DNA of 50,489 bases from Nemertoderma westbladi (taxonomy: Eukaryota > Animalia > Xenacoelomorpha): positions 1 to 50,489 of the forward strand of contig JAUCBJ010007001.1 in NCBI GenBank assembly GCA_032718475.1. Reading direction: 5' to 3'. Under the pieces are notes generated by a model that was not told the DNA's origin, searched no databases, and saw only the letters and a list, made by a program, of their open reading frames with translations. The position numbers were made by a program, and so were the translations under genes. Below are positions 2,995-37,436 of the stretch, piece after piece. How positions within the stretch are numbered: the stretch's first letter is position 1; each line of letters starts with the position of its first letter.

Positions 2995-5400
2995 GTAACC
3001 CAATATATATATATATACAAGGCCAGTTTTTAAATAATTTTAAGAAAATAATTTTCCTAAAAACGGTGGAATTTTCATTGAAAAAGACTGACATTCCTGC
3101 ACCGTTACACCAATAACTGAATAAATGAACGCTGTCATACTCCGAGACGGGGTGGGGTGGGGGGGGGGGGGGGGGGGGGTGGATGCAAATCCCATCTCGG
3201 TGTCGGTGAATTAATATCAAGTATCAATGATAAATTATCCATTTAGGGAAAGGAGCAGGTTACATTGGCGCGTTATTATAACAAAACAACAAACTAAACT
3301 CAATATAACATTGTGTCGGAAGTTCATTCATTAAGCAATTTAGAACCAAAATCAATAAAATTATGGGCTGTATTACTTTTTCTGATCTCTTCCATTTTAT
3401 CAACGTTTAACAAGTTTGCCGATACAAAAACTATATTTATTGCAATTAGCAACTTTTATGCACGGAATTTTCTATCGATATGACCAATCTGACTTATAAA
3501 ATAATTTCAAATTTATAAGCGATACACAAAGATAGGGCACTCGGTCATCTTCAAAACAATTGTTTTTTATCCCGCGCTCTCATCTCATCATTGGTCAGAG
3601 GGAGTTTCTTATCAGGGGGCAGTGCTATGAACTCAATTGACACTGAATTTAAAAAAATAAAAAATAGGTCTACTTTCATTAATTGCATTTTCATAATTCG
3701 ACTTATTTCCGTTGAAGAGCGGGAGTGTGAGGGTTACCTGTAATGTTACCTGTAATGTGTAATGAGTTGTGGGATTGCACTGTTCAGTCAGGTCAGTGTT
3801 GCTGACCGGTAGCACCGGTCAGTTCCGCAGCAAAAATGAAAATACTAATGAAAATGGGGAGGGGGGTCATTTATAATTTTTTCATCTGTATCTTGGAAAC
3901 AGTTGGCCTAATGTTTTAAAAACCGAGATTTCTTTTTCATGTTGAAATTTTCAAATTTTATTTTGGAAATGTTGAAAATGAAATGAGAATTGAAAATTTT
4001 GAAAATGTTCACATTGTCGGCACAACGCAACGCCGACACTGTCTGCACAACGCAACGTATAATTCAGTCCTAAATCAGTCTAAAGAAGGTCGTGCCTAAT
4101 GTAACAATACTGCTGCGCAGAAAACAACAGTTTAATAACGAAATGAAATACTCCCTTTTGCCGTAACTAAATATCAGATCCTAATTTTACAAATACAGAT
4201 AAATTCTGCCTAAATCTAAATTGCGCTATCTAGTAGGAACTCTAAGGGTAAATATGTTTCAGGGCGTGTGTGTGTGGGTGTGTTACAATAAAACAATTTT
4301 GGTGTATACCATTTTACTAGGTTTTAGTAATTCTCTGACCAAAACAATACCGTGCGCTAGCTACTAAAATAAACTAGTCGCGTTTTGTAGAACTTTATAC
4401 TTACAAATGACGTCAAAGCTCTCTCCTTCCTATCCACAACTCAACTGGGCAACCACAGTGTTAGTAACTACACCCGTGATCGGCACTAATACCAGATTCT
4501 GGTTGTAAGATAAGAAATAGGGGTTAATCGCTACCGTACGTTAGCTGATCTGGTATACAAATTTGATTCTAGAACTTTGTTGCCGCGGTAGTTAGCAGCA
4601 AATACCTATCAGTACGTGGCAAGGCGTGGTAGGATATTAATAAAACCTCCCTAGGCCAAGCGGTGTGCCGGTAGCAGAAATACTCCTTGCCTGATCAAAT
4701 AACTAACTTCAGGCAGGGGGGGGGGGGGGGGGGTGTACTAATGTATGTTCTATAAAGCGAACCGGTACCAAACGGTCAGTTTGCGAATTACTAAATTATG
4801 GAACATATGCTGTCTGTACCTAATATGTACTCGCGTACTGACGGACGGCAATAGCTCGCTTCTACCTATGAGGTATACAGGTAAACCCAGGGGTTCGCAG
4901 GACTGACAAAGGGGGTTTCTGCCTAAAATATAATTATTTGATCCTAAATTTTGCGGCGTCCCAGGATGGCGTCACACTTACCCTGATCTATAGGTCTTAC
5001 GTCGGGCAAGGGCGTCGAACAAAGTCTTACCTTCCTCATAAAGCGGGCGCTGCATGGCAAGTGGAGTATTTCGTAGGGCGAAGGGGGTGCGCGGTCTAAT
5101 CTAATGTGGGCGCTAGCGTGTTGTGGACATCCTTTCCCTGCGTTGCTGACGGCCTAACGGTCTAGGCGGCCATCTTCCTGATGCTTTGCTGTCCCAAAGT
5201 TGGACGTTCAGAAAAAGGCATGTTCAGAAGTTTACAGTGTATTTTACAGTTTAGCGAAACTTATCAAACAGATTATAACATATTTGCAACAAGAAACAAG
5301 TTAAGAATGACAACTAAAGTATAAGCAAATGATTAGTTTGTGTCTCGAATGACTAGTACAAGAGTGATAATACAAGTGATAACCAAAGGCAAACCAGCCC

Positions 5401-5538
5401 TTTATATACTAAATCTGGGACATAGAATCCACTAGAACCTTCTAGAGTATTCCATGGCCTCACATTGGAGCCATAAGATGTTCTATGCCCTTTGATTGGC
5501 CCAACTCATCGTTCGATCTGTTGTACGCACCTCATTGG
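5401..5538 (-). promoter_or_regulatory. LTR Pol II promoter: three CCAAT boxes and a TATATAAA box (same in the 5' LTR, ~20407-20544)
   Basis: - strand CCAAT at 5538-5534, 5499-5495, 5468-5464 and TATATAAA at 5408-5401. All four are preserved in the diverged LTR at ~34118-34260. Confidence 0.65.
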
Positions 5539-5587
5539 CTTACCAATTTGTACCAAATGAAAATAAATTGCCCCAAAATGCAAATTT

Positions 5588-5657
5588 CCCGACTGTGATT
5601 CGAACTCGTAACCTATCTGTAATGTAACCAACGCCTTAACCATCTGACCACTACGCC
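5588..5657 (-). other. tRNA-derived (A-box/B-box) module within LTR U3
   Basis: - strand GGCGTAGTGGTCAGATGGTTAAGGCG...GAGTTCGAATC: A-box/D-arm-like part and B box with tRNA spacing. Acceptor and anticodon stems do not pair. Confidence 0.65.
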
Positions 5658-6300
5658 ACGAGAGTAACTAGGGGTTTTAAGTGTACAAATATGAATAGGC
5701 ATATTACATTACTGTAATTTAATCAAAATGCGTCGGATTTTCGAAAGTTTTTACGTTAAAGTTAAACTACAAATGCTATCTTATAGTGAAATAATTCATC
5801 ACCGCTCCATGAAAAGAGTAAGTAAGACTGTTTTCACGAATCGAAATATAAACTATTTACAAACTACTTCTAAATCTACTGGTGGGGCCTAAAATATAAA
5901 ATAATCACTATCTAATTATTGCATACTTAATATTGCAGGTACGGCGTAAATACAATCTATCATACATACAAAACACAAATTTACCAATTAACTTTAGTGC
6001 ATAAAATACGAAAAAAAGCTTTCGGTTATCAAGGTAAACAAATTAAACAAATCAGAACAAAACAAATCGAAACAAATCGAACAAATAATTTTAAATCCTT
6101 CAATAAGTTTTATATATTGCAAATATACATAATAAATTCACCAAATTAAATCAGTCTAAATATAAAATAAACATAACACGCTAATAACTTCCAAATAAGT
6201 CATAAAGTGTCCTCCTGAAGAGCTTAAAGTTCATCCTGCTGGTCTGGATATCTTCTCCTGAGCACTAATTGCTAACGGTAGGCTCGCAAGCCTTCCTTCT

Positions 6301-6955
6301 CTATCTCGCTCCTCCAAACCCAACATCCAAACGTAATGTCCAATATAAATAACCAAATATAATATCCAAATATAAATATCTGGTTGGTCTCGCGACTGGT
6401 ACAACCGCTTTAGTAGGATGGGGCCGAGGTTCTCGCGTCATCTCGACATGAGGTATCTGTAGTCTCTGCGACAAACGCTGAGCAAAAGTGATACTATCGA
6501 AGAGCTCGGGTGTCATCTCCTTAGATTCGGTTTGATCATGGGATATCCAGTAAAATGGTAGGCTCGCGAGCTCCTTGACTCCTTGATCTCGCCTTTCTCG
6601 TATTCCTTCAAATTCGTCCCTGGCTGCAGGCAAGGGTTCGTTTGCCGTCAAATATTGCATCGTATGATATAATCGGCGTATCTCCGTGTCTGGATCCTCG
6701 CAAATGTCACTGGCGTCGCATAACGTATCGTAGGGATACAACGCATTGAACTACGCGCGTAATTCCTCCGCTCTTTTGTTATAAGCGTCCAATCGCTGTC
6801 GCGTAACATTCGGGTCCGCCTTGGATTTAGCGAGATTGGCTGTACTCCTAGCCATACTCTCCACTCCAAACACATTAAAGTTTTGGCTCCATAACGATTA
6901 AACGGTGCCTGGTGCTCCTGTTCCTGCGTGAATCCCTGTATATGTAGTGTTTCTA
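6301..6955 (-). pseudogene. Accessory ORF of unknown function in the env position of the BEL/Pao element (one frameshift)
   Basis: Two overlapping ORFs (6648-6968, 6301-6741) form a GC-richer island between integrase and the 3' LTR. Hydrophobic C-terminal segment YLYLDIIFGYLYWTL. Preceded by branch point, pyrimidine tract and AG. Confidence 0.55.
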
Positions 6956-9499
6956 CTAGAGGAAGCACAAACAGAGGTTAGATGTGAGGAGACTTAGAGT
7001 TTTGTCGGCTTTTGGCTCAACTTTGCTCTAAAACCCCAACCCATTTGCCTAATGATTTCGGCTTCGCGTGATTTCGCACTGGCTCCTAATCCAAAAAATT
7101 GTGCCGATAAAAAACGAATTCCGGGTAAACTAGCCGCGAGTCTAAAATACTCACCTTTTAATTTCCCAAACTACATTCCCAAAGAAAATAATGCAGTCGA
7201 GAATAAATTCGGTCTAAATAATAGTAGACACGACTACGTAGAACAAGGCTGATTTTCTTTTCCAAAAAAAAATTTTCGGTAGGCTCGCAAGCCTTCCATC
7301 CGCTCTTGTCCTCCCCAATTTTAATTTTTTTTTTTTTTATCTAGCCGTATTCTAGAATTCGCATTCACTGGAGAATCATTTTTCTTAAATTTAAATCCAA
7401 CTAAATGGATTTGTCTAATAATTTTTGAAAAATTGTCTCACTTGTGGGTTCCAAGTGGAATTCCATTCCTACTGTACACACAATCCCGCTCCTATGTGAT
7501 ACATAAGGGTACTACCCTCCATGTTCACATATAAAGACAATGGAATTCCACCGCTGTCTCTATCTACAGTGAAGAGGATTACAAATGCACATACAGTAAT
7601 ACAAAATACTAAATTACTAAAATACGGTAAGTCTATGTGGCAGCCATCAAGGGTCCCACATCTCTATTTACTAATATTGGGTGGAGATTTGTAGTCTCCT
7701 GTCTCGTTTCTAGTCTCTTCAAGGAGTACGAGACGTTGTACAGGCCTATCTATGGTACGGCCGTCGATAGTCCTTACAGTAACAGTCCTTACTACACCAG
7801 ATGTAGGGTGCGTGGTCAAAATGACTCCAGTCAGCCAAAACCGTCTTTTCAGATTGGCTTCAGCCAATAAAACGTGGTCTCCTCGTCTCAAACATCGTGC
7901 ATTAAGATACCAAGAGGTTCTGGTCAAAATAGAGGGCAAATAGTGTTTCTGCCATATTTCCAAGAATTTATTTGCTAATAGCTGAGTGATTTTCCAAGCC
8001 TTGTTGCCGTATCCGTCGCTATCAACGGGTACCGAAATGGGCAACAATGTCGTCGGAGCCTGCATAAGCAGGTGCGCTGGTGTCAAGGCAAACTGTGCGT
8101 CGTTATTGTCTGGGATCAAAGCGATCGGTCTAGTGTTTAAAATCGCTTCGATTTCTATTAGTAACGTCGTCAGTTGGTCGTCTGTCAATATGTGTTGCAT
8201 CGGTATTACTTTAGCCATAGCTGTCATAATTGAGCCAATCAGCCTTTCCCAAACGCCGCCTCTCCACGGACTGTCTGGAGTATTAAAATTCCAAACAATA
8301 CGGTGAGGACGTAGTTCCTCGGAAATCTGGTTTTGGTCCAATTTCTTTAAAGCTCTGGTTATTTCGTTCAGTGCACCCACAAAGTTTGTCCCTTGGTCAC
8401 AAAATATGGATTTGACCAATCCACGTCTAGCGATAAATCGCCGTAAGGCTAGGATAAAGGCATTGGTGGTTAAATCTGTCACACGCTCAATATGGACAGC
8501 TCTGCTGGCCATGCAAGTGAAGATTAATCCCCAACGTTTTACCTGTACCCTTCCGCATTTCGCGATTATGCGTCCAAAACAGTCTATCCCTGTCTCAGTG
8601 AAAGGGGGTCTAAACGCCTGTAATCTTGCTAGTGGTAGTTCACTCATTTCTTGGTGTCCTATCCTCGCGTGCACCTTCTTACAAATCATACAGTTCCGTG
8701 TTACCGAACTCAGTGCCTTGCTAGGCCTAATCAGTACAAACCTCAATTGTAAGTGTGATAGGCAGTGATGTCTACCCACGTGTTTGAGTTGTACATTTGC
8801 GTCCAGTATCATAGCGCGCTGTAATTCATGGTGTTGCGGTATGATGATAGGATACCTAAAGTCTAGTGCAAAGTCGATGTTTTGGAGTCTGGACTTGTGA
8901 CAAAGTAAGCCCTTATAAATAATCGGACTCCAACTCAAAATCGGTGAAGACTTGATCTGTTTACCTTGGTTGATCACTGTGAATTCTCGCTTGATAATGG
9001 CGAATGATATCAACTTCACAATGATCAACTTCCTTTAAGGTAAGTCTTCTAGGAAAGTCGCGTTTGCCTCTGGCATATTGTCTCAAACGTTTGAGCCATG
9101 CTAACTTGCGGCACGCGTCAGTCCATGATCTAGTTAGGTTTACTATCCGGTCAACGTAAGTGTTAGTGAAGTCATCAGGTAAGGTATAGTTATAGTGTGG
9201 ATACTTGTCTGGACTTGGTAGGCCCACGGGCCTTCCGGTAGGTTTGTCTGAGTCCCCAAGTATGTCAATCTCCACGGTCTTACCTTTACCGTCCGCATCT
9301 AATGAGTCGACTGGCAGTAACGGTTTCAACTCTACAGTATCAGTGTGTTCCTATGAGCCTGTAAGCTTCCTAACCTTAGTTACACGCTTACCTGTAGGTG
9401 GTAAGTCAAGTACTTTCTTTGAGCGGAGTGTGATCGCTGTGGCCACACCTTTGTCGTCCAAAGAAGTTAAATTTGGTAAGTTTCTAATTGTCCGCTCCA

Positions 9500-9910
9500 A
9501 TGGGTCTTCTAGAGGAGTGTCTAGTAGACAGTCTGGTGAAGCGTCTGGTGAACAGTCTGGTGAGACATAGCGCGGAACATCCGGCGAAATGTCCTGTCGT
9601 CGGTCCCAAAGAAAGTCTGGTGTAACTTCTGTCAGAAAGTCTGGTCTAAAATCTGGTGGACAGTCTGTCGAGATGTCTGGTGGAAAGTCTGGTGAGACGT
9701 CCGGTAGACAATCTGTCGAGAGTTCCATAAAACAATCTGGCGAGCAATCCGGAGAACAATCTGGTGTCGCTTCTGGTGATTAATCTGGTGAGTAATCTGG
9801 TGAACAATCTGGCAAAACGTCTGGTGAAATCTCCCGCGGAACATCTGGTGAAAGATTCGTACGAGCGTCTGGTCGAGATTCTGGTGAGACGTCTGGTGTA
9901 ATGTCAGGTC
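9500..9910 (-). repeat. Degenerate 12-bp coding tandem repeat (S/T-P-D-x tetrapeptide) between RNase H and integrase
   Basis: TCTGG recurs every 12 bp; translation PDITPDVSPESRPD...SPDCSPDASPDC, roughly 30 units, with one in-frame stop at 9780. Confidence 0.85.
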
Positions 9911-11823
9911 TAGCGTCCAGGTCATCAGATTTCGTCCGTCCTTGTTTCCTCTTGACCTTGGCGTTGGCTTTCGCTTTGGATTTTACAACCTTGTCGATTT
10001 TTATCTCGGCACCCTCTGGTATGGTATTGGTCTTCGAGTCGAATAACGGTGGCCATTCGTCTGATGGTCGCTGTAGGAAATCGGGTCCTTTAAACCAAAA
10101 GGATTTATTGTCCGGTTTACAAAAGTCGAGCGGTTGCATCCCCCGTGACGCGATGTCAGCTGGGTTCAGCTTCCCTGGACAGTGACGCCAATCTTGTTTG
10201 AGCGACCGGTCTAATATTTCAGCCCGTCTGTTGGCTACGAAAGTCTTGAACTCAAATGCTTTGTTGTTTATGTACCAAAGTACCAACGTCGCATCCGTCC
10301 AATATGTGACATTCAAGTTAGCCTCCAGCTCGCGTTGAACTAGACTGACAATATCGGTGGATATCGTCCCGGCTTGCAGCTCTCTACGAGGTACAGTCAT
10401 ATACTTCAATGGCATTGTTCTAGCTCTTAAAGTAACGAGAGACACTTTGTAGCTGTCCGATGTCACTTGTCGTCTAAGGTATAAGGTAACCCCCAATCCA
10501 TCCTTGCTAGCGTCACTAAAGCTGTTAAGCTCTAAATCAGCAGGAAAGGTGGTCTGCAAAGGAAAGTATACCCTTGGTATAGTATAGTCTTGTAGGAACG
10601 TCAGTTGGGCTTCCCAGTCCCTCCATTGCTCAGCTAACTTTTCTGGGATGGGGTCGTCCCATTCCAGTCCGGCTTGCCAAATGCTGCGGAGTATGATCCT
10701 AGCATGTAGGATCACTGGACTAATGAAACACAATGGGTCATACAATCGACTCATGGTCGATAAGCAAGTCCTCTTTGTGAGAGGTCTAGTCTGGTCGTTG
10801 GACCTTACACGTACCCTAAAATTGTCGGTGTTAGGGTCCCAACTAAGTCCTAATACTTTGGTCGTCGGTAGAGGTTCTAGGTCTAAGTCCAAGTCACCTC
10901 CACTGCGATCCGTCGAGTCAAATGAGTTCACCAGTTCGGGTTCGTTGGAAACAAATTTCGTCAGGTGAAATCCGCCCTCAGCGAGACAATCCTGGAGTTG
11001 GTGTGCTACGGTTGTAGCGCGCTCCAAAGTGTCACAACTCTTGAGGCCGTCATCCACGTAGAAATCTCGTTCCACAGTCCGAACTACTTTTGAGTCAAAT
11101 TGGTCTCGTCTGTCTAATGCGGTCTGCTTTAAGGCGTACATGGTGCAGTTGGGGCTGTCCCTGGCTCCGAAAACTCTTACCTGCATTTGGTAAGTTTCTG
11201 GCGGAAGTTCTAAGTTTCCGTCCGGATACCAAAGAAACCTCAAGCTGTCCCTGCCCCGCTCCAAAGCCTTAACCTGGTGAAACATAGCCTCTATGTCACA
11301 GGTGAAAGCCACTTTGCATTGTCTAAAACGCATTAGGACTCCCATGAGGTAATTATTCATATTCGGTCCGTCCATCAATTCGCTGTTCATAGACATCCCT
11401 TGGTAAAGCGCGGCACAGTCGTTTACTACACGCACCTTGCCAGGTTTGTCCGGGTGTCGAACAAAATGATGTGGCAGGTAATATGTCTGATCTGTGGTTA
11501 CCTCGGGATTTAACATCCTAATGGCGTATCCCTTTTGGAGATACGTCTGAAGTTGCGCATTGTATTGCATATGGGCCGTCTCATCTTGCAACAATCGCTG
11601 TCTTATTGATTTGAGTCGCCTCAAAGCAAGCGGGTAATTGTTAACGAGCTTAGGTTGTCCATGCCAACCTCGTAGTGGCCATTCACGGTCTGGCGAATGG
11701 TATCTCTCATAATATTTAATTAAATAAATTGGAGATGAGCTGTTGCAACTGTAATTAAAGGTGTAATATTATGGGTTTGTTCAGAAGTGGAAAAAATGGG
11801 AGCGCGTCACCGGGGGTTGAACC

Positions 11824-11869
11824 AGCGCTATACGCACGTTTCGGCCTAACAGGCCTCATCAGTAGCGCT
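11824..11869 (-). ncRNA. Minimal type I hammerhead ribozyme, copy 1 (intact core)
   Basis: - strand AGCGCUA-CUGAUGA-GGCC UGUUA GGCC-GAAAC GUGC GUA-UAGCGCU: 7-bp stem I, full catalytic core, 4-bp stem II, minimal stem III, GUA cleavage triplet. Confidence 0.9.
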
Positions 11870-12163
11870 AACCAGCTCAGCCACTAGCCCCTGACACTCG
11901 CAGTCCCACCTAATCCACTTCTATTGAACGGGCAGTCTTAAGTTGCAAATATTCTATCTCTAACAGCGGACCTAACGGCCTCAAGTATGCTAGAGTGAAA
12001 CAGGAGGGAAGTACAAATAAATAAATATTCAGCTCGGTATTGCTGCCAGGTGATATTAATTAAATGAATTGGAGATGAGCTGTTGCAACTGTAATTAAAG
12101 GTGTAATATTATGGGTTTGTTCAGAAGTGGAAAAAATGGGAGCGCATCACCGGGGGTTGAACC

Positions 12164-12209
12164 AGTGCTATACGCACGTTTCAGCCTAACAGGCCTCATC
12201 AGTAGCGCT
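12164..12209 (-). ncRNA. Minimal type I hammerhead ribozyme, copy 2 (two stem substitutions)
   Basis: Same motif; stem I has a C/A mismatch and the base of stem II is a G-U wobble. Confidence 0.8.
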
Positions 12210-13719
12210 AACCAGCTCAGCCACTAGCCCCTGACACTCGCAGTCCCACCTAATCCACCGCGACGCGCCCCCATTTTTTTCCACTTCTGAACAAACCCAT
12301 AATATTACACCTATAATATTTAATGACCGTTTTTCCTGTTCTGACATAGCGGTCTCGTAACTACCGGGTTCTGCTGAGTCCTGTTCCAACCATTGAATGG
12401 TCCGTTCAGTCAGCAGTCGGTCAAGTGCTGCTTGCACTGCGCCATGGTCCTCATCCACATCTTCGTCCGCTGCGGTGGCTAGTGTCAATGTGTCTGGTAG
12501 GCTCGCAAGCCTTCTGGTGTCACTAGTCGGCGTCGAATCGTCTAGTGGCGGTTTGACAACCTTTTGATCTGTCGGTAGGCTCGCAAGCCTTCCAAGATCA
12601 ATGACCGGTGTCGAAGCTTGGTGGGTGTGGTCAATGACCTTCGGATTTTTCGGTAGGCTCTCAAGCCTTCCAAAATCCTCGTTCATCGAGTCATCCACAG
12701 CAACAACCCTTTGGTCTTCAGTAGTCAATACAACCTGGTTTACTGCAAGTAGTTGTAAGTCAGAGGTCCGTGTGGTCGTGTCCAGATCAGCTACGTCAGT
12801 ATCAGTGGCGTCTGCATTAGCGACGCAAGTCTGTCGTAGTGCCGTCTGTACAATTGGACCACAGGAGTGTGAAGGAGAATTATCTATAGTGTTAGTCAAT
12901 AAACTACACGTACTCAAAACGTCGTCCTCCTGGTCACTTAGCTCTAGTGAACGTATTGGTGCTCTAGTATACCAACCTATGGGAGTTCTACATGCGTAGG
13001 GGTTGCCCGCTGTAATAACAGATGGGCGTGTCTCCCATACCTGATGTACGTTAAACTGGTCTGTCCCAATCAACATCGCGATTGAGCGATAATTAACAGG
13101 ACATTCTGGTATTCCAAGGTGTCGGAAATACTTACGATCTTCCGGTGATTGCTCTGGCACAGGGCCGAGCAAGTTACTAAAGTCCTTCGTAGCTGCAAAG
13201 GTCAAATTTCTTACCGGAAGTAATGAGCGCTCCTCCTTGCTGTGTTCCGCTTTGGAAAGAAGAGTGTCTAAGGTTAATTTTACTCTTGTCACAGGGATCG
13301 CAATCTTACCATGCATGCTACTTACAGTATATTGAGCAGTCTTACCTTGACTCATGTCCGTAACCACGTCGGCTACTTGTTCATCGACATAACTATGCGA
13401 TGACGCAGAGTCTAAGATAGCGTATATATACGCTTGCTCCCTCGGGTTCCGGTAATCTTTATAGGAATCACGCTAAACCCTTTCAATTGGTTCTGTGTGA
13501 GGAGTGTTACCGATGGCTGTTCCTCACCTGCATGCACGTAGAAAGTGTCGTCTTCCTCCTCCTCCTCGTCCTCGTCCGATGATCCTGACTGGTTCGTACA
13601 ATCTGCGTAGAACGTACGGATCTCGCGCGGCGCACGCTCCTTGTATAGTGCGTCGCATCTAGCCGCTTTATCTGGATGCTCTCATCGAAAGCGTTTGGTC
13701 GGAGTATGACTAGTTCTGT

Positions 13720-16700
13720 GAAGCAACGCGTCATGGTTACGTCCACACTGAGGACATGTATCGTCGCTCGGGCAATCCTTCCGGATGTATCCTGGCTTCG
13801 TACATCTCCAGCAAGAATCTAAGGATCAAATTTGAAGTCTTCGCTCTTCGATTCCTAACTCCCTAAAAGCGCGACATCCACGAAGTTTATGTCCGCTATA
13901 GTTTCTGCCGTTCTGCTCGCAGTATGAGCATCCCACAAAGTCCGCCGGCAACTGTTGTCGTGGCTGCGTGGTGCCGATAGGCGTCAGAACTTTAGAAGTC
14001 TCAGTAGGGGTGGCATAGGTAATGGCTTTCGCGTTTGTTGGAAATGGTTTTGTCCGAGTCGGCGCAGAAATAGCTATCCCTTCTGCTGCGATATGGTGAT
14101 CGGTGTAATTCGATCGAGTCTCGATAACGGCCTCCCACGAAATCAGTTGGTAGACGTTGGTGAGTTTTAATAGCCCGCCGGCTTCTTCACGCTGGTACTC
14201 GATGCGTCGCCATTCTCGTCGAAGTCGATGATGAAGTCGACCGATTATCCTGATGAGAACCGTCGGTGCGTTAGCGTACTCGAGTTGTCCAATGGACTGT
14301 AAAGTCCCTATAGCGTTCTTGATTTCGTCCGCGAGTCGTAGAAGGTCGATCGATTTCGAAATGCTGTCTCCTCTGCAGAGGTCTTCGATAATGGATTTTG
14401 CCATGGCGACGTTACCTCCGTAAATCGAATACAAACGGTCGTACGCCAACTCAAAGGCATCTGGAACACCAATAAAGGTTTCCGCTAATCGTTTCGGCTC
14501 ACCAGACAGGACTAGGAGCAAGTAATTAAAATTCTCTGTCGAGGTGAAAGAATACTTAGCGATCTGGGACTCTACATAGTCTACCAGTGTACACCAGTGT
14601 TTTGCTTTGCCAGAGAACTTCGGCGGTTGCTGTGCCGGTATCCGTGTCTAGCCGCGAATTTCGCAATCTCGCTAACTAAATCTAACTGTCCGCGTCCCTG
14701 TTCGGTTGCGTCGTCCAGTCGTTCCCTTCCGCACGTTGTTCGTCGGTAAGAATTATTAACGGGATCTTCTTCTCGATGGGTCGGAGTCTGTCAAGTCTCC
14801 TGTTCTCTCCTTGGTGGTCGATGTAGTCTAGGTTGTTCTAACTCCACGCTGGTTTGTGATCAATCCGACGGTTGCGCTTCAAGTCGCTCCTCGAGTTGAG
14901 CTAGTCGGTCTGTCATCTCGGTAAACTGTTTGGCGCTGATCGTTTCCGCTGGTTGCAACGTGGGTTTCCGAAAGGGTGTTTCTCGTGGTGGGTTGTCGAC
15001 GAATTGGTTCATCGATCGTTCCTCTCGTTTGTAATCCGCTGCCGCTGCTGCCGCCCCAGTACGGAATAATTCCCGTTCCATCGACTCCGAGTCACTGGAT
15101 GAATCGCTGTCGTCCGGATAAGGTGGTTGGCGGGTTCGCGTCCGGCGTATTACTCTTGGTCGAGTTCGTTGTGGTCTGGGATCTACGGCTCTCCGTTGTT
15201 CGGTAGGCTCGCAAGCCTTCCACGTAGTCGTAGGTCTCGTTGAACTCGGTTCGATCCTGTGGGTACTACCCACATCCGTCATCCTTCGTTGTTCGGTAGG
15301 CTCGCAAGCCTTCCACGAAGTCGTAGGTCTCGATAAACACTGGGTGAGGGGTCTAGTAAAAACATCGGGGTTAAGTTCTACTGTAGGTTTATAAATGACT
15401 GGGTTCGCGCAGCACGTCACAGGTTTAACTTGTAATTCACAGGTAATTCACAGCACGTCACAGGTTTAACTTTACTCACCTGTTTTACCGTCATAAACGC
15501 AGGTTCGTCTCTCTCTTCTAGTAAACTTAGGTGGACTACTTATCTTACCTGCGAGAATCGGCGATGAAGTCGCTCGTGGCTGCGGAATTGATTCCGACAT
15601 AACAAACCTATTCGCTTTCGTCCTTCTGGGCTCCTCCCGGAGGTGCACCCACGAGGCGGACGAGTTTCCACCACCCCTGGGGCCAGTCCGACTGATGTTA
15701 TTATCAGACCGGGCCGGAGGGTGGCCCGATGCTTCCCGGGTTCTGTTTTCGGTCCCCCGATCACACCGGCACAGCTCGTCGAACGCGTAGCCAGATGGTC
15801 GGCTACTGTCAACTTACTGTGGCCTGACTGTACATTGAGCCAACTCAAAGTATAACAAAGAGTCAACCGGCAGGTGGACCAGTCGATAGCGATGAAGCAC
15901 CAAGGTCACCCCTGGGCCTAACCGACGGTCTTGTCCCAAGCGGGCTTGCGCTACCCAACATTGGAATTTTGACACGTTTTCACCTGCCTCGCCGGCAGTA
16001 TTGAGGGGAAGTAAGTTCCGCAAACAATACTGACTAGCTCGAAAGCTAGGAACAAGTAACCACTTACCAGTCACTGTACACGTGTACTCAACAGATGTTC
16101 ACAAAATCAAGTACACAACGGTAAGCACAAAATCGAACACATACCATGCACACACAGAAGACAAAATCGGGAAAGACAAAATCGGGGTCAAATCAGAGGG
16201 GACAAATTGTATCGACCAACAGGCTAATTTAGAGTACCTTATTTTGCCGTCAGGGCAAAATAACATTGTGTGCACAAAGTATGCTGGGGCGCAGTAGAGA
16301 TATGGTCCTACTAATACCAGCGGTGACTGGACCAACTGGCAAGGGTTCCCATACTCACTCGCAGTGGCCACACATACAATCACGTGTACTCATGTACCCA
16401 CAGCAACAGAAAGCTCAAAGACCCGAACAAATCCCAAAGACCAATCAGCTGAACATGGAGACAATAATATATAGTATCAAAAAAACGGAACAGCTGATGA
16501 CCAAAGGAACCCGTTCAAGCCCCAAGCAAACTGCCACTGATCGCCCACATACAAAACATAGTTCACACCACATGAACCACAAATCACGCCATGCCACCAC
16601 CCCTACTGTGTACAGGACTGGCAGTACGGCAACATGCCGACTAGACGGTACCACGGCACCATGGCAATTCATGGTTCGTTAGACACGAGGGCCTTCAGTC

Positions 16701-17923
16701 ACTCCCTAGCACTATATAAAAGATTTAACGTGCCCCTAGACCCTCATGAGTCCGCCGCCGCCTGTTTCACGCACCCCTATAGAGACCTCACCTCTTTAGG
16801 TACGTGATTTTATTTGCCGTGCCTCCAACTGAGCACGAGCGTCAGATGCCGCTTTCTTCCGCGCTAACTCATCAGATGCTGCCTGTCTTGCTGCTGCCGC
16901 TGCAGCCGCTTCTTGCGCCAAGTCCTCCTCCAGTCTCCGCATTTCCGAGGCTTCGAATTCGGCTTGAGCCTGGAGTTTCGCAACCCTTGCTTCATCCTCT
17001 CTGCGTTGTTTCTCTCCCTCGATGGCGATCTGTGCCATCTGCCATTGCGCTTCTTCCTCGGCAACTTGTTGTCGGCGTGCGACCTCCTGTTGTTGTCGAG
17101 TAATTACAGACGCTGTCCTACTAACGTCGCCAACGTCGCTCCGCACACTATCGAACGATCTATCCATTGGTGGATTTTGGTAGGCTCGCGAGCCTTCCGT
17201 AGATAGAACTTCTGTCGTCCCTCTCTGTACAACTTCCGGTTCTTCGATTGGTACTCCGCATCTACGAAGAAAATTGGTGAGCGTCCCTAACCTCCCGTCC
17301 AGGCAGTATAGTTCTTCCTCCTCTTCGGGTTGTAATAATGCGTCCGAAACCGACTCACCTAGCAGTTGGTCAAACTGCTCCTGTTGAGCCAATCTTATTA
17401 CTGACTTAAACTGGATAAGGCTTTCTCTCGCACTTACCAACTTATCTATTATCTTCACCTGAGTAAAGTTGTCGCCACGCAACTCTGCAAGTTCGTGTAA
17501 ACTTTAAGTTTATCTACGGAAGCATGTACCCTACTTTCTATCCTTACCTTGTATGGTGTAGAACTCGTATCTCGACATTGGGGCGGTTAACTCGCATAAA
17601 ATGCGAAAACCTTCTCCGAGGTTCCGAGTAATCTGGGCCATGTGTCCTCCTATGCTTCTAATGACGTTCTCCTGGCTTCCAGTCGAACTTACCATGTCCG
17701 GTTCCCGCGATCTAGTCTGCGGGACAGTAAGGAAATCTTCGATTCTGCCGTCGCCACGCGTTGCGGCTTCCGGTATTTCCGTTCGGGGTACCGGCGACGC
17801 ACGCGGTGTGACATCGGTAGAATCTCGGGTTCTCCTTCTCAGTTCGTCTACTGTCGATCTGTCCGGGTCGCACGAGTCATAGTCGGTAGGGGGGTATCGA
17901 GTCGAATGTGGTGTATCACTCAT
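13720..17923 (-). pseudogene. gag: BEL/Pao gag, fragmented
   Basis: ATG at 17923; Glu/Ala/Gln-rich coiled coil (16796-17482); DUF1759-like PKFSG...W...LLLVLSGEPKRL...AYDRLYSIYG; knuckles CSYC..H...C, CWRC....DC, CPQCGRNHDALLH. Interrupted at ~15420-16795. Confidence 0.88.
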
Positions 17924-17949
17924 GTCTTATTATATACGTCAAGTACGGG

Positions 17950-18150
17950 TAATAAAATGTCAAAGTATCAGAATGCAGGAATGTCGAAATGTCAAACTTA
18001 CCTTGGTATATATAGCATATATATACCCTAACCGGTACAAATAAATCAACAAAGTCAGAATGTCGAAATGTCAAAATGTCGAAATGTCCAAATGTCAAAC
18101 TTACCTTGATATATATATATATCATATATATACCCTAACCAGTACAAATA
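17950..18150 (-). repeat. Duplicated ~100-bp unit in the element 5' leader, with AAATGTC sub-repeats and AAG|GTAAGT donor-like sites
   Basis: AATGTCAAACTTACCTTG...CATATATATACCCTAACC.GTACAAATAAA occurs twice. Confidence 0.7.
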
Positions 18151-18506
18151 AAACTAACAAAGTATATAATAAAATATGTAATAATCTAGCCTACCGGCTA
18201 AATTTGTACGAATAAGTGAGATAACGGTATACGTTACCAAAATATAGATCAACAAGTACAAATAATAGGCAAAACAGCAACGTCTAACGGGAAAATAAGT
18301 ACCAACAACACTACTAATTAGACAGTGAAACCCACAAATTTTGAGTACTATTGTGCTTTCTAAGTTTGAACGACACGAGTCGTAAAACTTACGCTCCCTT
18401 GATCTTCCAGTCATGCAAATTCCCAAATACAAACCGGACGTGGGTCGTTCCGTTTTTCGGCATCGCGGACGAATTTTGTGTCTCCCAAACTTGCGAAAAG
18501 CGGTCT

Positions 18507-18524
18507 AATCCTCGAAGCGGTCCA
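18507..18524 (-). promoter_or_regulatory. Candidate primer-binding site
   Basis: - strand ...CTCA TTTC TGGACCGCTTCGAGGATT resembles the tRNA-Tyr-type PBS (TGGTCCTTCGAGCCGGAT) common in BEL elements, but imperfectly. Confidence 0.4.
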
Positions 18525-19351
18525 GAAATGAGTCCTTGAGTCCTGAAAAGTCGAAGGTGAGAGTTTTACTTCTACTCTACGAAAAATCTCTCTACTCTCT
18601 ACTCTACGAAGGTACCGATACAACTTGGTCTTTAAACCCTATGTACCTTTTCAAGTACCGAAAGTAACACCGCACACACACACGGCGTAAAACAAATTGC
18701 TACAAACTAACTATTAGCTAGTCAAATATTAAATACGAAACTACTAGCTACCCTAAAAGCCTACTGAAGCAGGGGACGTTCTACAAATTACTAATTTACT
18801 AACCTTAAATTTTAAATATCTCCTACTTTCAATAGTACAGATCTAAACAATACTATACACTAATTTATATAGTATATACCTCACTGTTGTGTCCTCTACG
18901 TTAGGGACTACCCTACAGCCTACAAATCTACTAATACGAAGCTATAGAATATTTCTAACCGTAGAGTCCAGTAGTATACCGCTTACCAGATCCTAGTAAC
19001 GATGTATCTTACTGTAAGACTCTAGTAATGAAATGGGCTCGTACAGTATCTGACAACAAATCCCAGTCCAGGATATCTAAACAAACAGATACAATACACA
19101 AACTACTACTGGCGAGGAGCAGAGACTGGTGTCTATTCTATGTACGTGAGCGGGTCTAATGCCTACGAACTAGACAAAGGGATACCTGTCCTCTAACCGG
19201 TATGGCAGATGTACAGTTACAGTAACAGACCAAACTCACGGGAAAACAATCCCCACGCAGCGAATCCTAACTATCGCTGACAGTCCTAAATACCGTAACT
19301 TGCCGCGGTGTGATTTATATGGTTGTTTATATACGAGCTAGGTGGTTTACG

Positions 19352-20807
19352 GCGCTAGCTACTAAAATAAACTAGTCGCGTTTTGTAGAACTTTATACTT
19401 ACAAATGACGTCAAAGCTCTCTCCTTCCTATCCACAACTCAACTGGGCAACCACGGTGTTAGTAACTACACCCGTGATCGGCACTAATACCAGATTCTGG
19501 TTGTAAGATAAGAAATAGGGGTTAATCGCTACCGTACGTTAGCTGATCTGGTATACAAATTTGATTCTAGAACTTTGTTGCCGCGGTAGTTAGCAGCAAA
19601 TACCTATCAGTACGTGGCAAGGCGCGGTAGGATATTAATAAAACCTCCCTAGGCCAAGCGGTGTGCCGGTAGCAGAAATACTCCTTGCCTGATCAAATAA
19701 CTAACTTCAGGCAGGGGGGGGGGGGGGGGTGGGTGTGTACTAATGTATGTTCTATAAAGCGAACCGGTACCAAACGGTCAGTTTGCGAATTACTAAATTA
19801 TGGAACATATGCTGTCTGTACCTAATATGTACTCGCGTAATGACGGACGACAATAGCTCACTTCTACCTGTGAGGTATACAGGTAAACCCAGGGGTTCGC
19901 AGGACTGACAAAGGGGGTTTCTGCCTAAAATATAATTATTTGATCCTAAATTTTGCGGCGTCCCAGGACGGCGTCACGCTTACCTTGATCTATAGGTCTT
20001 ATGTCGGGCAAGGGCGTCGAACAAAGTCTTACCTTCCTCATAAAGCGGGTGCTGCATGGCAAGTGGAGTGTTTCGTAGGGCGAAGGGGGTGCGTTGTCTA
20101 ATCTAATGTGGGGCTAGCGTGTTGTGGACATCCTTTCCCTGCGTTGCTGACCCTGCGTTGCGATGGTCTAGGCGGCCATCTTCCTGATGCTTTGCTGTCC
20201 CAAAGTTGGACGTTCAGAAAAAGGCATGTTCAGAAGTTTACATTGTATTTTACAGTTTAGCGAAACTTATCAAACAGATTATAACATATTTTCAACAGGA
20301 AACAAGTTAAAAATGACAACTAAAGTATAAGCAAATGATTAGTTTGTGTCTCGAATGACTAGTACAAGAGTGATAATACAAGTGATAACCGAAGGCATAC
20401 CAGCCCTTTATATACTAAATCTGGGACATAGAATCCACGAGAACCTTCTAGATTATTCCATGGCCTCACATTGGAGCAATAAGATGTTCTATGCCCTATG
20501 ATTGGCCCAACTCATCATTCGATCTGTTGTACGCACCTCATTGGCTTACCAATTTGTACCAAATGAAAATAAATTGCCCCAAAATGCAAATTTCCCGACT
20601 GTGATTCGAACTCGTAACCTATCTGTAATGTAACCAACGCCTTAACCATCTGACCACTACGCCACGAGAGTAACTAGGGGTTTTATGTGTACAAATATGA
20701 ATAGGCATATTACATTACTGTAATTTAATCAAAATGCGTCGGATTTTCGAAAGTTTTTACGTTAAAGTTAAACTGCAAATGCTATCTTATAGTGAAATAA
20801 TTCATCA
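19352..20807 (-). repeat. 5' LTR of the BEL/Pao element (shared portion; may extend to 18529)
   Basis: Direct repeat of 4354-5801. Begins TGATGAAT on the - strand. Confidence 0.93.
20594..20663 (-). other. tRNA-derived module within the 5' LTR
   Basis: Same sequence as 5588-5657. Confidence 0.65.
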
Positions 20808-26850: not shown

Positions 26851-29800
26851 GTAAGTTACTTTTGTAATAAATTTATTCAATACATTGGCCAATTAAACGT
26901 ATGTACCACTACTGAGGAATTGGTTAAACGGAATGGCTTTTAATTTGAGGGGAATTAATTTTGCATGTGCCTCAGATGTGCTCTCAGACGTCCCCCCCCC
27001 CCCACCCCCCCACCCAAATTGAAGGTTTAAAGTAACTAACCAACGCAAACCAAAACTTGTTACCAATTCAGGGAAAGGAGCGTGCAGGTCAATTATATGA
27101 CAAGGTGTAACCAATATTGGTGAGTGTGTATATTATCGGGCTAACTAATAATATTGCACTAATAACTGAACTACAGTACAGTGTAATGATCGTTAATGTA
27201 AATAACAGTGGAGTATGACCTTCTGCTTTAAGTCCCAGAGCGATGTCTTGGCGATGTTTCTTTGTAATATTATTTGATACATGACCTTAGGTCATGTAGC
27301 GTTAAGTCCACCAACATGTTATTCTAACCAAAACAAAAAATGAAAGTCAATAACACTGGTTATGTCACTGGTTATTTTTACTAGAAATCAGCTACTGTAT
27401 AAATAAAAGTACAACTTATTGCTGCAAATACGGCAAAACCTAACGACGTAAGACTTAATGTCCTGCAGTGGTATCTAATTCGGTGGGATCTAACGCGCCT
27501 GGAGCTAATGCGACATTTGCGCCTGTTAGTGCGGCACAGTGCAGCGCAGTGCAACACTCCACTTTTTTTCATTACTTCTACTAACTGAATAACTGATAAT
27601 TCCGGTGTCAATCTCGTAGAAAAGGAATGTTGCATTAATTTTTATATTTAATAATAATAATTTAATATTGCGATGTCCAATATTGCATAATTAATATTGC
27701 ATATTATATTACACCACCTTTATTTGTCATACAGTTGCTATCATTATACAACTATTGCTTGTTGTTACCACAATAGTTGTATTCTAGAAATTTTAGTTCT
27801 ACAATCCAGCTAATATTGCTTTTATACAGATTTCATTAATGTTGTGCTAATTGCAAACCCGAACAGTATTATTATACACCTAACTGCATGTTTTATTCAT
27901 GTTGTAGGCCTATTAACTAAGTGTTTAAACAGGATCAAACATTTCAGCATTTCTGTAATTCGTCTCGTGATCCTTATTTTGGCATTCGGGATACCTGATT
28001 TTTCATTTATCAGAAAAACTTGTCAAAGCTTACAGTAGTGACGATATGAAACGTGGTTTTGAAAACTTCAGATCAGTTTATAGGTCTATTTATTGCAAAG
28101 GAATGTTATATTAAATTTGGTAATGGATCATTTTACAGTTACGGATTCAAAACAAAACTTGGGAAAAAGACTCCTGGGAAAATTTTAAGAGATACAAAAT
28201 ATCAAAATTGCCGTAGCTCCTATATAATAATTCAAGCCTATTCATTTGAATCAGTGCAATGAAATGAGTTATATTTCAGTTAATGATGCAACTAAGGATG
28301 TAACTGGTTTAGGTCTATTAGCGGTAGATAAGATTCGCTGCGCGGGATTGTTTCTCGCGAGTTTGGTCTGTTTCTGTAGACTGTATTTCTGTCTCACCAG
28401 TTAGGGACCGGGTCAACCTGATTGTCAAGTTAGCCCGGGAAATTGATTCGCCAAAGTTTGGTGGAAGACATCAGGCACCGTACTCGTCAGTATTAGTTTG
28501 TGTACTTTAGTATCTATTATTTATAGATTGTAAATACTGTAGATGCTTGATTCTTTCAGCCTGCCTGGACTGACCTTCACAAAACGTCCTAAAAGTTAGG
28601 ACATTTTACCACCCGTAGCCTTAACTGAGAACTACTGAAAATTTGCAAATAACTCCTTTACATTGTTATTTTATCACTAATCCTTTGGAAGATAGGAGGG
28701 AAATTCAATTTTATACCCGATTCACTCAAAACATTAATTTTGAGAAAATTTGCCTTAGGACGTTTTACCACCCGCCCGTCCCACAAAATGCTCTAGTATG
28801 GATAGTGTGCCTTGAAATAATATAAGTGGAACGATTTTGTATGTGTTGTGTAGACTAGATTGTGGACGTGAGTGAGTGAGTAGACTCGGCTATTTGTGAA
28901 TGGATTTTATTGAAATTTGGTGGAAACCTACACATGCATATTACAAACTCTAAACCAAAAACAAAATTTGAAAATCGCAGTAGTGAGTCCGTATTGGCAC
29001 TTTTCGCACAGGATACCAAAATAATGTTGTACCATGCTTATTGCGGCTCTATATGTTTGAATGTTTTTTAAAAATTGGTCAAACCGTACACAAACATAAA
29101 TATTACAAAAATGGATTAGAAGATAATCCCTGAAAGAATTATGGGATTGACACTAATTAGCACATTTCGTGGTGCTAAAATATTTCATAGCATGCAGATT
29201 TTTTGAAAATTTATATGCAACTTTATTACACTTATATATTATTACACTATATACACTTTATTTGTATACAATAGAACCACACCGATTCCAAATCCGTTGT
29301 CCTTTTCCTTGTCCATCTCATTTTCGCATTTTACTACTTGCACTTTTCAGGCTATTGTGGTGCTTCTTAAAAATTCCGAATATTAACATATAATAATACA
29401 GAATCTTGATATAAATGGGTTCAGCGTTAAAAATAATCCAATATCACCGATAAATACGGCATTGGATATAAGTTAACTGAAACAAGTAGTTTAATTCAAA
29501 ATTATATATTTGAAAATTTTAGTAGGGGATCGTCTTTTCATTTTTGGGCCATTTTGGTTAACTACAGCGTCTTATAATTGTCACCAATGAAATCAGCACA
29601 TACGAAAAGCTTAGTATTGGTGAGGATATTGAAGTTGTTTCCTATTTCAAAATTTGAAATTTCACACTACTTGCACTGTTGGACTTGGCGCTCTTGTGGT
29701 ACTTTTCAAATTTCCAATGTTTAGAGGCCAATTTTACCCATAATTGTTTGCAATGGGTTCAGTGTTAAAAATAAGCGAATTTTGAGGATTTATTTCACCA

Positions 29801-33855: not shown

Positions 33856-34300
33856 TGTTGGATTATTTCACTGTTAAGTAGATATTTACAGTACCACGTA
33901 AAAAACTTTCTAAATCCGACGTATTTTGCCTTGATTTGTAGTAGTTGTAATATGCCTACTTCCTATAATAGTTATAAGTTCACTGGTGATTCTATTGGCG
34001 CAGTGGTCAGATAGGTTAATGCGTTGGTTACATTCTAGGTAGGTCAGGGGTTCGAATCTGGAAAGGGAAATTTGTATTTTGGGCTATTATATTTTCGGTT
34101 TCATTTAATTAGATAAGCCAATGAGGTGCGTACAACACATGGAACGATGGGTTGGGCCAATCATAGGGCACTTACTTAATAATTTATTGCTCCAATGTGC
34201 GGCCCTAGAATGTTATCGAATGTTCTAGGTGATTTCATGCTTAGGATTTGCTATATAAAGGTGCAGTTTGTCCTTTGGTTATCACTTAACTTGCTTGCTA
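33856..34300 (+). mobile_element. Diverged LTR related to the large BEL element LTR (U3 part), interrupted by a LINE
   Basis: TGTTGGATTATTTCACT... aligns colinearly with the reverse complement of ~5801-5375, including the tRNA-like module (33997-34066), CCAAT boxes and TATA. Possible far end CAACA at 37557-37561, but no TSD. Confidence 0.8.
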
Positions 34301-37300: not shown

Positions 37301-37436
37301 TGATTCTGTCGAGTATAGCGTATTTAACAAGTAAGATTATACCACCACGATGTGGTGACTTTGACGGGTTTGAAATAGTCGCAAAACCTGGTACAGAAAC
37401 ACTGGCGGCCGTTTGCGCTAGTGTACCTGTCAACAA
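34301..37436 (-). mobile_element. Young, slightly 5'-truncated LINE (RTE-X-like)
   Basis: Uninterrupted ORF2, short 3' UTR with a GGCC-GGACG-GGCC stem-loop, and a (CTA)n tail at ~34303-34316. Confidence 0.85.
34458..37436 (-). CDS. LINE ORF2: AP-like endonuclease, reverse transcriptase and C-terminal Cys/His motif (N-terminus missing)
   Basis: 992 codons without a stop; GVYIPP, GDFNAR, IDL, SDHAPI; NYRGLS, DFSKAYDRV, GVRQG, LLFMDD, YLGS; HRLRVETGRW...CYC...EHHVLLKCP. Confidence 0.93.
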   Translation of the reverse strand: MLTGTLAQTAASVSVPGFATISNPSKSPHRGGIILLVKYAILDRIKSIDKSVEGQIWIEFDYIADILFGGVYIPPNDSLYYDDSLFAELHHKFDSSKDFVALGDFNARVGIPQIYDIDNEINTSNLHYRNVSDLTVNKSGQILQCICTATNSIVCNNLCSGYSNLGGGLTYKKGGKWVSEIDLCVSSSNIYGTIATLDVHQDILGSDHAPISILVKVDRENFRVDKKGLFTRSMSLGHSIYEDGDAVKLTGVAMDIKGLSHKFVECDKFEARIAQCDPPVISDTNDVDTLLDSFFETIDEAARSCRRSRNDPVITRDPDACRWDHIINSNDPKSLWKALDWNGNISFEDENNANTAPEDEEFRTHFESLLNPSEPTDIDSDITSTIYVPCLDDPFTQREFAEGLADMKTNKGYIGVSPGLLTRLPGAWLIFILSIFNLIFIGAIYPVKWAVSKLITCFKSGNRLDCGNYRGLSIMTTPLKFFDILIYNRLKYWINLDKCQAGAQKGRGCIEHILGLRLIIDYAIFKKSKLYVVFIDFSKAYDRVPRDKMFELLKSSGCGFRMLFIIKALYSATKSILRSAVILTTIGVRQGAPSSGILFCMYLNKLVIMLKEAVKCDGFLGALVCLLFMDDTVIVSTSRKNCEIKLRALYDYCTVFGMVINQKKSKFFVINGNVDDSKPFILGTTVISTCEFYVYLGSVFAADGRISTALKHHIIICERTINKFAIFCSKNTSLPFALKKKVFDACIISSILYGCETWLSVNACTKQIEPVFNRLIKILLSVRQQTPIDLCLIEFNIPPLSHYIVNARLKYVKNMFRLPVHDTDVPLYYIYDLCKAANTPGYRCLMSALDYKVDDPLTSVRLRVLNKPLSATKFRTYSDTINPGLTAHPLYSCLKPVIPDFKRVHFTRLRLMSHRLRVETGRWTRVAPELRVCYCDNTSVQNEHHVLLKCPISEHIRIKFVQLDFTDLSSLFSTDLLVDLCSYVSEVLCLYY

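Follow-up and report, generated by a model that had tools for sequence, protein, structure and literature searches.

The window, the whole 50,489-nucleotide stretch of Nemertoderma westbladi DNA that we analysed, contains a decayed copy of a BEL/Pao LTR retrotransposon, with stops, frame breaks and one insertion. It is assigned to BEL/Pao by its BEL-type Pfam families (matches to DUF1759, Peptidase_A17 and DUF5641), its Gag-PR-RT-RH-IN order and its two bounding LTRs, which are 97.2% alike (4354-5801 vs 19352-20807); the proteins nearest to its reverse transcriptase are 40-45% identical. This element carries ten same-orientation copies (nine intact, one degenerate) of a 20-nt near-palindrome, hereafter the motif. 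The parts of the element are:

4354..20807 (-), BEL/Pao LTR retrotransposon, ~16.5 kb, from the LTR pair and Pfam domains
19352..20807 (-), 5' LTR; starts with TG, without a motif copy
16796..17503 (-), upstream frame; predicted helix, linker and long coiled-coil-like helix
13826..14647 (-), capsid-like part of Gag (DUF1759) and first Cys-His knuckle, from ORF and Pfam
12186..13472 (-), protease and a linker with three motif copies, from tblastn against BEL loci (E 1e-9)
9780..11768 (-), frame encoding reverse transcriptase with RNase H, from Pfam and protein comparison
7664..9034 (-), integrase frame, from ORF and Pfam
4354..5801 (-), 3' LTR; starts with TG, end near CA, without a motif copy

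The upstream frame weakly resembles BEL Gag N-termini (best E 7e-4 among 78), and no RNA-binding fold is recognisable in it. We also considered it as a Rev-like or DNA-binding partner; this idea is unsupported, and a DNA-binding fold was not seen. The protease-linker frame gave 0 matches among 1.8 billion protein representatives. The motif copies, in element order, are:

17179..17198 (-), CGCG-loop copy whose core is a perfect 14-nt palindrome; frame EGSRAY, predicted disordered linker
15295..15314 (-), UGCG-loop copy within a 93-bp tandem unit; reads WKACEPT
15202..15221 (-), UGCG-loop copy within a 93-bp tandem unit; reads WKACEPT
12652..12671 (-), motif copy, loop UGAG private to this element copy, 78-bp tandem unit; flanks extend the stem
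12574..12593 (-), UGCG-loop copy within a 78-bp tandem unit; reads GRLASLP, stem lengthened by the flanks
12496..12515 (-), UGCG-loop copy within a 78-bp tandem unit; its first base is specific to this element copy
9217..9236 (-), variant with a CGUG loop and a U-A to C-G change; RNase H-integrase linker, GRPVGLP
7278..7297 (-), motif copy, loop UGCG, 3' of the integrase
6557..6576 (-), degenerate CGCG-loop copy with damage to one arm; from mismatch scan and covariance model
6382..6401 (-), weak candidate for the remnant of an eleventh copy; from alignment, missed by the covariance model
6277..6296 (-), UGCG-loop copy in the 3' region, ~480 bases ahead of the 3' LTR

The first-pass annotation had reported ten copies in one orientation and had noticed none outside the element; a mismatch scan and a covariance model trained on the nine intact copies confirm this for the window. 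The string GGTAGGCTCGCAAGCCTTCC is matched at 0-1 mismatch by eight copies (6277, 7278, 12496, 12574, 12652, 15202, 15295 and 17179); the ninth row of that scan is the 17179 palindrome on the opposite strand, and 0/100 dinucleotide shuffles held any match. The 9217 copy has four mismatches to this string and the 6557 copy six, the latter being recovered by the covariance model at E 0.02. Across the whole window, that model finds no further site below E 2 except known sites read backwards. All copies lie between the LTRs, with none in the LTRs and none in the 34 kb outside the element. The ten dispersed copies of the first-pass annotation amount to only seven independent sites, however, since five of them belong to two tandem arrays (78-bp and 93-bp units). 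A read joint at 17199-6578 points to an intact form of the degenerate 6557 copy, which may occur in a minority of other element copies. Another read joint, 6375-7276, falls near the 6382..6401 relic and has a 900-bp deletion as its alternative reading.

Seven of the ten copies fall within probable coding frames, and every copy lies outside the conserved domains (at copy positions, an alignment is obtained for 0-1 of 78 polyproteins). The motif peptides, described in the first-pass annotation as translated in all three frames, do fall in the longest stop-free frames; their translation is nevertheless inferred, because the surrounding stretches are without homology to other BEL proteins. Two bases of the window proved to be its own: in public runs, the common letter accounts for 77345/77345 (X1) and 85881/85928 (X3) of the depth at position 12661, and for 41859/41919 and 29041/29041 at position 12515. 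The UGAG loop (12661) and the 12515 letter are thus private to this copy of the element, and other copies keep the common form; the varying loops noted earlier are reduced to UGCG, CGCG and CGUG.

Conservation of the motif is sharply bounded. Among the six intact independent sites, column identity is 0.92 within the motif vs 0.24 and 0.27 in the 25-nt flanks, and it drops abruptly at the edge of the palindrome. Within the tandem units, adjacent bases have diverged to 29-53% identity while the motif has stayed intact. A synonymous-site check, also proposed in the first-pass annotation, supports its view that the motif is selected as RNA or DNA: between units of one array (three pairs), third codon positions are identical at 6/6 sites each inside the motif vs 9/20, 5/20 and 5/20 outside it, and the pair from the other array gives 7/7 vs 12/24. 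Taking one pair per array, third positions are identical at 13/13 sites inside vs 21/44 outside (Fisher p 7e-4). Because third positions are identical within the motif and identity stops at the palindrome edge, and with copies in three frames and in the 3' region, selection on the nucleic acid rather than on the protein is supported at the level of sequence. Selection on pairing as such is weakly supported. Six of the seven stem pairs are without any pair-keeping change, and although the compensatory U-A to C-G change at 9217 is present as first described, it is matched by 59/500 shuffles and is not significant covariation. What these comparisons show to be conserved is the sequence itself, including an A-A mismatch that is retained in 9/9 intact copies.

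Among the families compared, we found the motif in this one only. Conservation in other BEL elements, for which the first-pass annotation had suggested a library scan, was not borne out: there were 0 matches with up to 4 mismatches in 101 distant BEL loci, and the covariance model, run over 100 of these, reached a best E of 0.45. A de novo dispersed-repeat scan picks out the window, with 7 clusters and 10 copies; the other BEL loci (many of them partial or redundant, and scanned without a shuffle control) yielded only 3 clusters (29 loci) or 4 (L148), and a longer non-hairpin repeat (L151). Metagenome contigs contained 0 matches to the exact 21-nt motif. A relaxed pattern matched 68 loci in viral contigs, once each and with no multi-copy locus; these are taken as chance (1.86 expected per Gb), and no BEL relatives were detected in viral contigs. 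The motif peptides had only scattered single one-mismatch matches among 240 proteins. Nor did the motif match a tRNA or a known family: Rfam 15 models returned no family match and, at E up to 1, one chance-level match outside the element. A tiny mobile element with target-site duplications was discarded, the flanks having no consistent duplication, and self-priming between the post-LTR stretch and the LTR complement, either plain or across possible splice joints, is unsupported (best 7 and 8 nt). Searches of open-licence papers turned up no description of such a motif system, and nothing on genomic RNA choice or pairing for BEL/Pao.

A property absent from the earlier reading, and newly recognised here, is that the UGCG, CGCG and CGUG loops are self-complementary, through G·U pairs, on the element-sense strand only. 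Hence, like the palindromes of dimer linkages, the motif is self-complementary on the genomic strand and computed as able to form both a hairpin and an extended duplex. The self-duplex of the common form is computed at -30.7 kcal/mol for the sense strand vs -22.9 for the antisense strand; the hairpin is -7.6 on both. A homodimer gain of -12.9 or lower is obtained for 9/10 of the 80-nt motif contexts in the sense and 2/10 in the antisense direction (motif-free controls: 17/400 and 14/400), and the only sense context without it is that of the privately mutated UGAG loop. Motif copies also make up seven of the nine strongest self-pairing 20-mers on the sense strand and two of nine on the antisense strand. 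Zipping between adjacent copies is predicted for the sense strand alone. This evidence is all computed, however; dimerising benefits any hairpin, and a near-palindrome will by its nature score high in such rankings. The strand asymmetry itself depends on just two changes from a palindromic loop, for which we estimate a chance of about 1 in 4 (transitions only).

Given this loop-mediated self-complementarity of the sense strand, copy-to-copy RNA pairing is at least as likely as the packaging signals proposed earlier. Our best reading, held tentatively, is that the motif acts as a family-specific, multi-point signal for RNA dimerisation or assembly. Each copy in the genomic RNA would be a recurring pairing point, a small hairpin that opens into a 14-base-pair duplex with a second copy; any two copies are predicted to anneal through their G-U-paired loops, and the duplex would carry an A-A mismatch and a two-pair clamp to either side of them. 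The nucleocapsid of Gag could chaperone this switch, and two genomes might thereby be linked in register every 1-3 kb; alternatively, a single long RNA might be compacted, or several RNAs clustered at assembly sites. Template switching and tandem duplication probably gave rise to new copies at places where the protein could accommodate them. More speculatively, and fairly improbable in our estimation, we liken the ten copies to a genome-long zipper that links the two genomes: one family-specific palindrome every ~1-3 kb would pair copy to copy and stand in for a single 5' dimer signal. The RNA would thereby identify members of its own family, gather in assembly bodies and, while reverse transcription proceeds, keep its two templates in register.

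The invariant stem letters are what cross-pairing would require, and we count them for dimerisation. Several points count against it: the 9217 variant is computed to pair with other copies ~6 kcal/mol less well than those copies do among themselves; covariation is not significant; the 101 distant BEL loci are without the motif or a comparable repeat; the 5' leader, which is home to the known dimer signals, is without a copy (none in 19351-17930; the first is ~2.15 kb inside the element); ten interchangeable sites could mis-register the genomes; and the loops also retain both G residues, a pattern equally expected of a zinc-knuckle site. This last feature, common to UGCG, CGCG and CGUG, suits dispersed local hairpins whose partner would be either an export factor or, for packaging or assembly, the zinc knuckles of Gag; this reading is compatible with dimerisation, and we consider it somewhat unlikely. 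RSV nucleocapsid provides a precedent by binding the G residues of a UGCG tetraloop, yet a change to that UGCG reportedly left specific Gag binding unreduced (PMC5035970). The constant A-A mismatch, the hairpin preserved by the 9217 change, and the flanks of 12574 and 12652, which lengthen the stem (z -4.6 and -3.9, with two matched double changes identified by eye), favour bound hairpins too; an export need is plausible because splice-donor words are enriched in the element's 5' third (7 vs 0.99 expected). Nevertheless, the stems, invariant apart from one compensatory change, show no significant covariation of the kind typical of dispersed packaging signals, z is below -2 in only 3/10 40-nt windows around a hairpin that is weak in itself, and in a 200-nt sense context hairpin probability is absent for 5/10 copies.

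Conservation of sequence rather than pairing would also be expected of DNA, in which inverted half-sites in the integrated element are bound by a dimeric host or element protein with an anti-silencing, insulator or chromatin role. VANC motifs, which as described in PMC5735166 form family-specific, one-orientation arrays, multiply by way of tandem repeats and are gained or lost from copy to copy, resemble the two tandem arrays and possible copy gain or loss seen here. We regard DNA sites as unlikely, given LTRs without copies, mostly probable coding positions where VANC motifs are mainly non-coding, loop changes that favour the RNA sense strand, and an upstream frame that offers no DNA-binding fold. 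Least probable, to our minds, is neutral spread, whereby a pause-prone palindrome is copied by template switching during reverse transcription, homogenised, and survives in tolerant linkers. It would account for the copy-free conserved domains, for the orientation, which template switching preserves, and for restriction of the motif to this family among those examined. It sits poorly with a tandem-unit motif that is intact amid diverged neighbours and with conservation that ends exactly at the palindrome edge. Moreover, templated correction of near-palindromes would remove central asymmetry and mismatches, yet both persist.

Genomic RNA choice and pairing are poorly defined in LTR retrotransposons, even in Ty1 and Ty3, where scattered sites have been suspected (PMC4974528). 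One repeated, exact, strand-biased 20-nt motif is an unusually clean experimental handle on the hairpin, duplex and protein-binding readings. Its closest parallels are Ty1 PAL1/PAL2, which undergo a hairpin-to-duplex dimerisation (PMC6844567), and the palindromic dimer linkages of HIV-1 (DIS), MLV and ALV (PMC516450): in each, a self-complementary hairpin of an LTR-element RNA is convertible to an intermolecular duplex, with Gag as chaperone. Those signals are reported to comprise between one and three distinct palindromes close to the 5' end, whereas the BEL/Pao motif is one sequence that recurs at ten places spanning 11 kb, chiefly within coding linkers and never in the leader, and its likeness to them is computed only. 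Packaging signals of ssRNA viruses and the HBV pregenome are likewise many small stem-loops along the genomic strand that overlie coding sequence, but they are described as a short recognition feature on varied stems (PMC6281560); here, the whole 20-mer is near-identical and self-complementary. Stem-loop C of RSV micro-Psi shares the UGCG loop, the commonest form of the motif, and our element also has Cys-His knuckles; that stem-loop, however, occurs once, at a three-way junction within the 5' leader, and the likeness covers loop letters only (PMC5035970). The VANC targets of Arabidopsis VANDAL DNA transposons match the motif in family specificity, single orientation and tandem-repeat amplification, but are 9-nt, non-palindromic, non-coding sites in a DNA transposon, and the protein that binds them is known (PMC5735166). 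Finally, the homotypic clustering of nanos and pgc RNAs has been attributed to multivalent palindromes as a means of RNA self-recognition, an in silico proposal that concerns host mRNAs with varied palindromes rather than one motif repeated in a retroelement (PMC13079385); were copy-to-copy pairing true, the BEL/Pao motif would be a natural example of multivalent palindromes serving that purpose.

All copies of the 20-nt near-palindromic motif lie in one orientation, on the minus strand and inside the BEL/Pao element, at the positions that the first-pass annotation had claimed; eight copies agree within one base, versus none in 100 shuffles. The LTRs and the 34 kb of the window outside the element contain none, and a covariance model built from the nine intact copies recovered the degenerate one (E 0.02) and no new site.

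4354–20807, minus strand: BEL/Pao LTR retrotransposon
6277, 7278 and 17179, minus strand: single motif copies
6557, minus strand: degenerate motif copy
9217, minus strand: variant motif copy
12496, 12574 and 12652, minus strand: motif copies in 78-bp tandem units (linker array)
15202 and 15295, minus strand: motif copies in 93-bp tandem units
16796–17503, minus strand: upstream frame, containing copy 17179

The element has 1.45-kb LTRs (97.2% alike) and carries DUF1759, Peptidase_A17 and DUF5641 in the order usual for BEL/Pao; the window's copy has decayed: it contains stops and frame breaks, and its RT is interrupted by an insertion. This insertion (11712–12317) splits the RT frame; it consists of a 207-bp unit present twice (11712–11918 and 12053–12258, 97.6% alike) and an inverted fragment. 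On the minus strand it resembles a tRNA-derived short repeat containing a candidate hammerhead ribozyme core whose third stem is very short. It gave no Rfam or ARAGORN match, and stem II alone is clear in its predicted fold. Between 19351 and 15380 (minus strand) there are seven GGTRAGT splice-donor words versus 0.99 expected (0 of 100 shuffles), two of them in a duplicated unit, and a 1.3-kb stretch lacking a long frame separates two gag-like parts, also in other element copies; the gag region may therefore be spliced. At the LTR ends as aligned (window 19351–19320) neither a tRNA primer site nor a target-site duplication is obvious, and complementarity of the stretch after the 5' LTR to the LTR is no longer than 7–8 nt; the LTR may in fact end at another position, and 19185–19290 recurs inverted at 28308–28411. 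About 390 bp in both LTRs (5374–5756, 20380–20762) include a tRNA-like piece and recur inverted at 33896–34287 (76% alike), beside a LINE frame (34458–37460) at its 3' end. In the RNase H-integrase linker, a 12-bp tandem repeat (9500–9920) encodes SPD-type peptide repeats. The protease-linker frame (12186–13472) is highly divergent: it has no match among 1.8 billion representative proteins and a weak match to BEL loci.

Along the sense strand the copies are spaced by 1884, 93, 2550, 78, 78, 3279, 1939, 721 and 280 bases. Five of the ten fall in the two tandem arrays, which leaves seven independent sites: these occupy the upstream linker, Gag N-terminal repeats, protease-RT linker, RNase H-integrase linker and 3' region, and each aligns with none or one of 78 full-length BEL polyproteins. 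Of the three-frame reading proposed earlier, the peptides do lie in the longest open frames; their translation is presumed.

It is the nucleotide sequence that is conserved. When the six independent sites with an intact copy are compared, column identity reaches 0.92 within the motif versus 0.24 and 0.27 in the flanks, falling at the palindrome edge, and paired tandem units are identical at 18–20 of 20 motif positions, with 17–25 of 58 and 39 of 73 in the remainder. Third codon positions agree: 6 of 6 are retained in the motif versus 9, 5 and 5 of 20 outside in the three linker-array pairs, and 7 of 7 versus 12 of 24 in the other array (p = 7e-4, one pair per array). From these alignments, selection acts on the nucleic acid of the motif.

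Other copies of the element were drawn from public sequencing runs (18,713 contigs in X1 and 8,958 in X3, most 90–99% alike; 40 of 1242 variable places were listed). Within the linker array the window deviates from the motif at two places, 12515 and 12661; there the common letter makes up >99.8% of the other copies' depth in both X1 and X3, summed depth not being copy number; the sole covering X4 contig has it too, and X5 has no cover there. The UGAG loop, listed earlier among the loop variants, is thus decay at 12661, leaving UGCG, CGCG and CGUG. Two joints suggest that in some copies the motif is intact at the 6557 site and that a further one lies near 6380, although a deletion would equally be a reading of the latter joint.

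The compensatory change reported at first pass is present as a double change at one stem pair only, and 59 of 500 shuffles equal it; what is conserved is therefore the sequence, and covariation establishes no hairpin. The local hairpin is predicted to be modest (-7.6 kcal/mol), and only three of ten 40-nt windows have a folding z-score below -2, flanks lengthening the stem in two.

A further feature is strand asymmetry. With G-U allowed, all three loops self-pair on the sense strand only, a property of 36 of the 256 possible four-base loops. For the common form, the predicted self-duplex is -30.7 kcal/mol in sense versus -22.9 on the other strand, with equal hairpins. In 80-nt contexts a predicted homodimer gain of at least 12.9 kcal/mol is reached by 9 of 10 sense and 2 of 10 antisense copies, and by 17/400 and 14/400 motif-free controls; the two antisense gainers have a perfect CGCG loop, and the sense exception a privately mutated one. 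Within clusters, sense-strand annealing is predicted for 15295 with 15202, 12574 with 12496 and 6557 with 6277, whereas antisense folds give separate hairpins.

We tentatively favour an RNA pairing element: Gag, as a nucleic acid chaperone, would turn hairpins into copy-to-copy duplexes. These could hold a pair of genomes together at numerous positions, or else make them compact and gather them where assembly takes place. PMC6844567 and PMC516450 describe hairpin-to-duplex linkage at the 5' end by Ty1 PAL1/PAL2 and retroviral palindromes, and PMC13079385 proposes palindromes as a general route to RNA self-recognition. Against this, pairing is a prediction throughout and near-palindromes score high by construction; the asymmetry depends on just two changes in the loop, which by our estimate would arise by chance about 1 time in 4 if only transitions count, and which also preserve the two G residues there; and the 9217 variant is predicted to cross-pair some 6 kcal/mol worse while self-pairing well. 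Protein-bound hairpins, which we think somewhat unlikely, have precedents in the dispersed-signal model (PMC6281560) and the RSV UGCG loop, yet that loop is dispensable for specific Gag binding (PMC5035970).

DNA sites of VANC type are, like the motif, specific to a family, uniformly oriented and amplified in tandem (PMC5735166). VANC motifs are mainly non-coding, however, and depend on a protein that binds them; the upstream frame appears not to supply one, and this reading is unlikely. Neutral spread accounts for placement in linkers but fails to explain exact retention within diverged tandem units, and is quite improbable.

Neither 101 distant BEL loci nor metagenome contigs yielded the motif, and 240 proteins did not yield its peptides; a de novo scan able to recover it in the window found no comparable dispersed hairpin in the distant loci. 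Database searches gave no close relative of the element (RT identity 40–45% at best), and the motif is family-specific as far as seen. Twenty-three loci with BEL/Pao RT in a prokaryote genome collection (L147–L169; bins and a Wolbachia record) are most likely animal contigs binned into prokaryote genomes.

The motif is real, selected, limited as far as seen to one family, and undescribed as far as searched, the open-licence literature yielding no description of a dispersed motif of this kind in BEL/Pao elements. In its working it would resemble either dimer-linkage palindromes, from which its location differs, or dispersed packaging signals, whose varied but pairing stems have a single compensatory change as their counterpart here; it is accordingly placed in neither class. 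A review (PMC4974528) notes a possible role of dispersed sites in the packaging of Ty elements.
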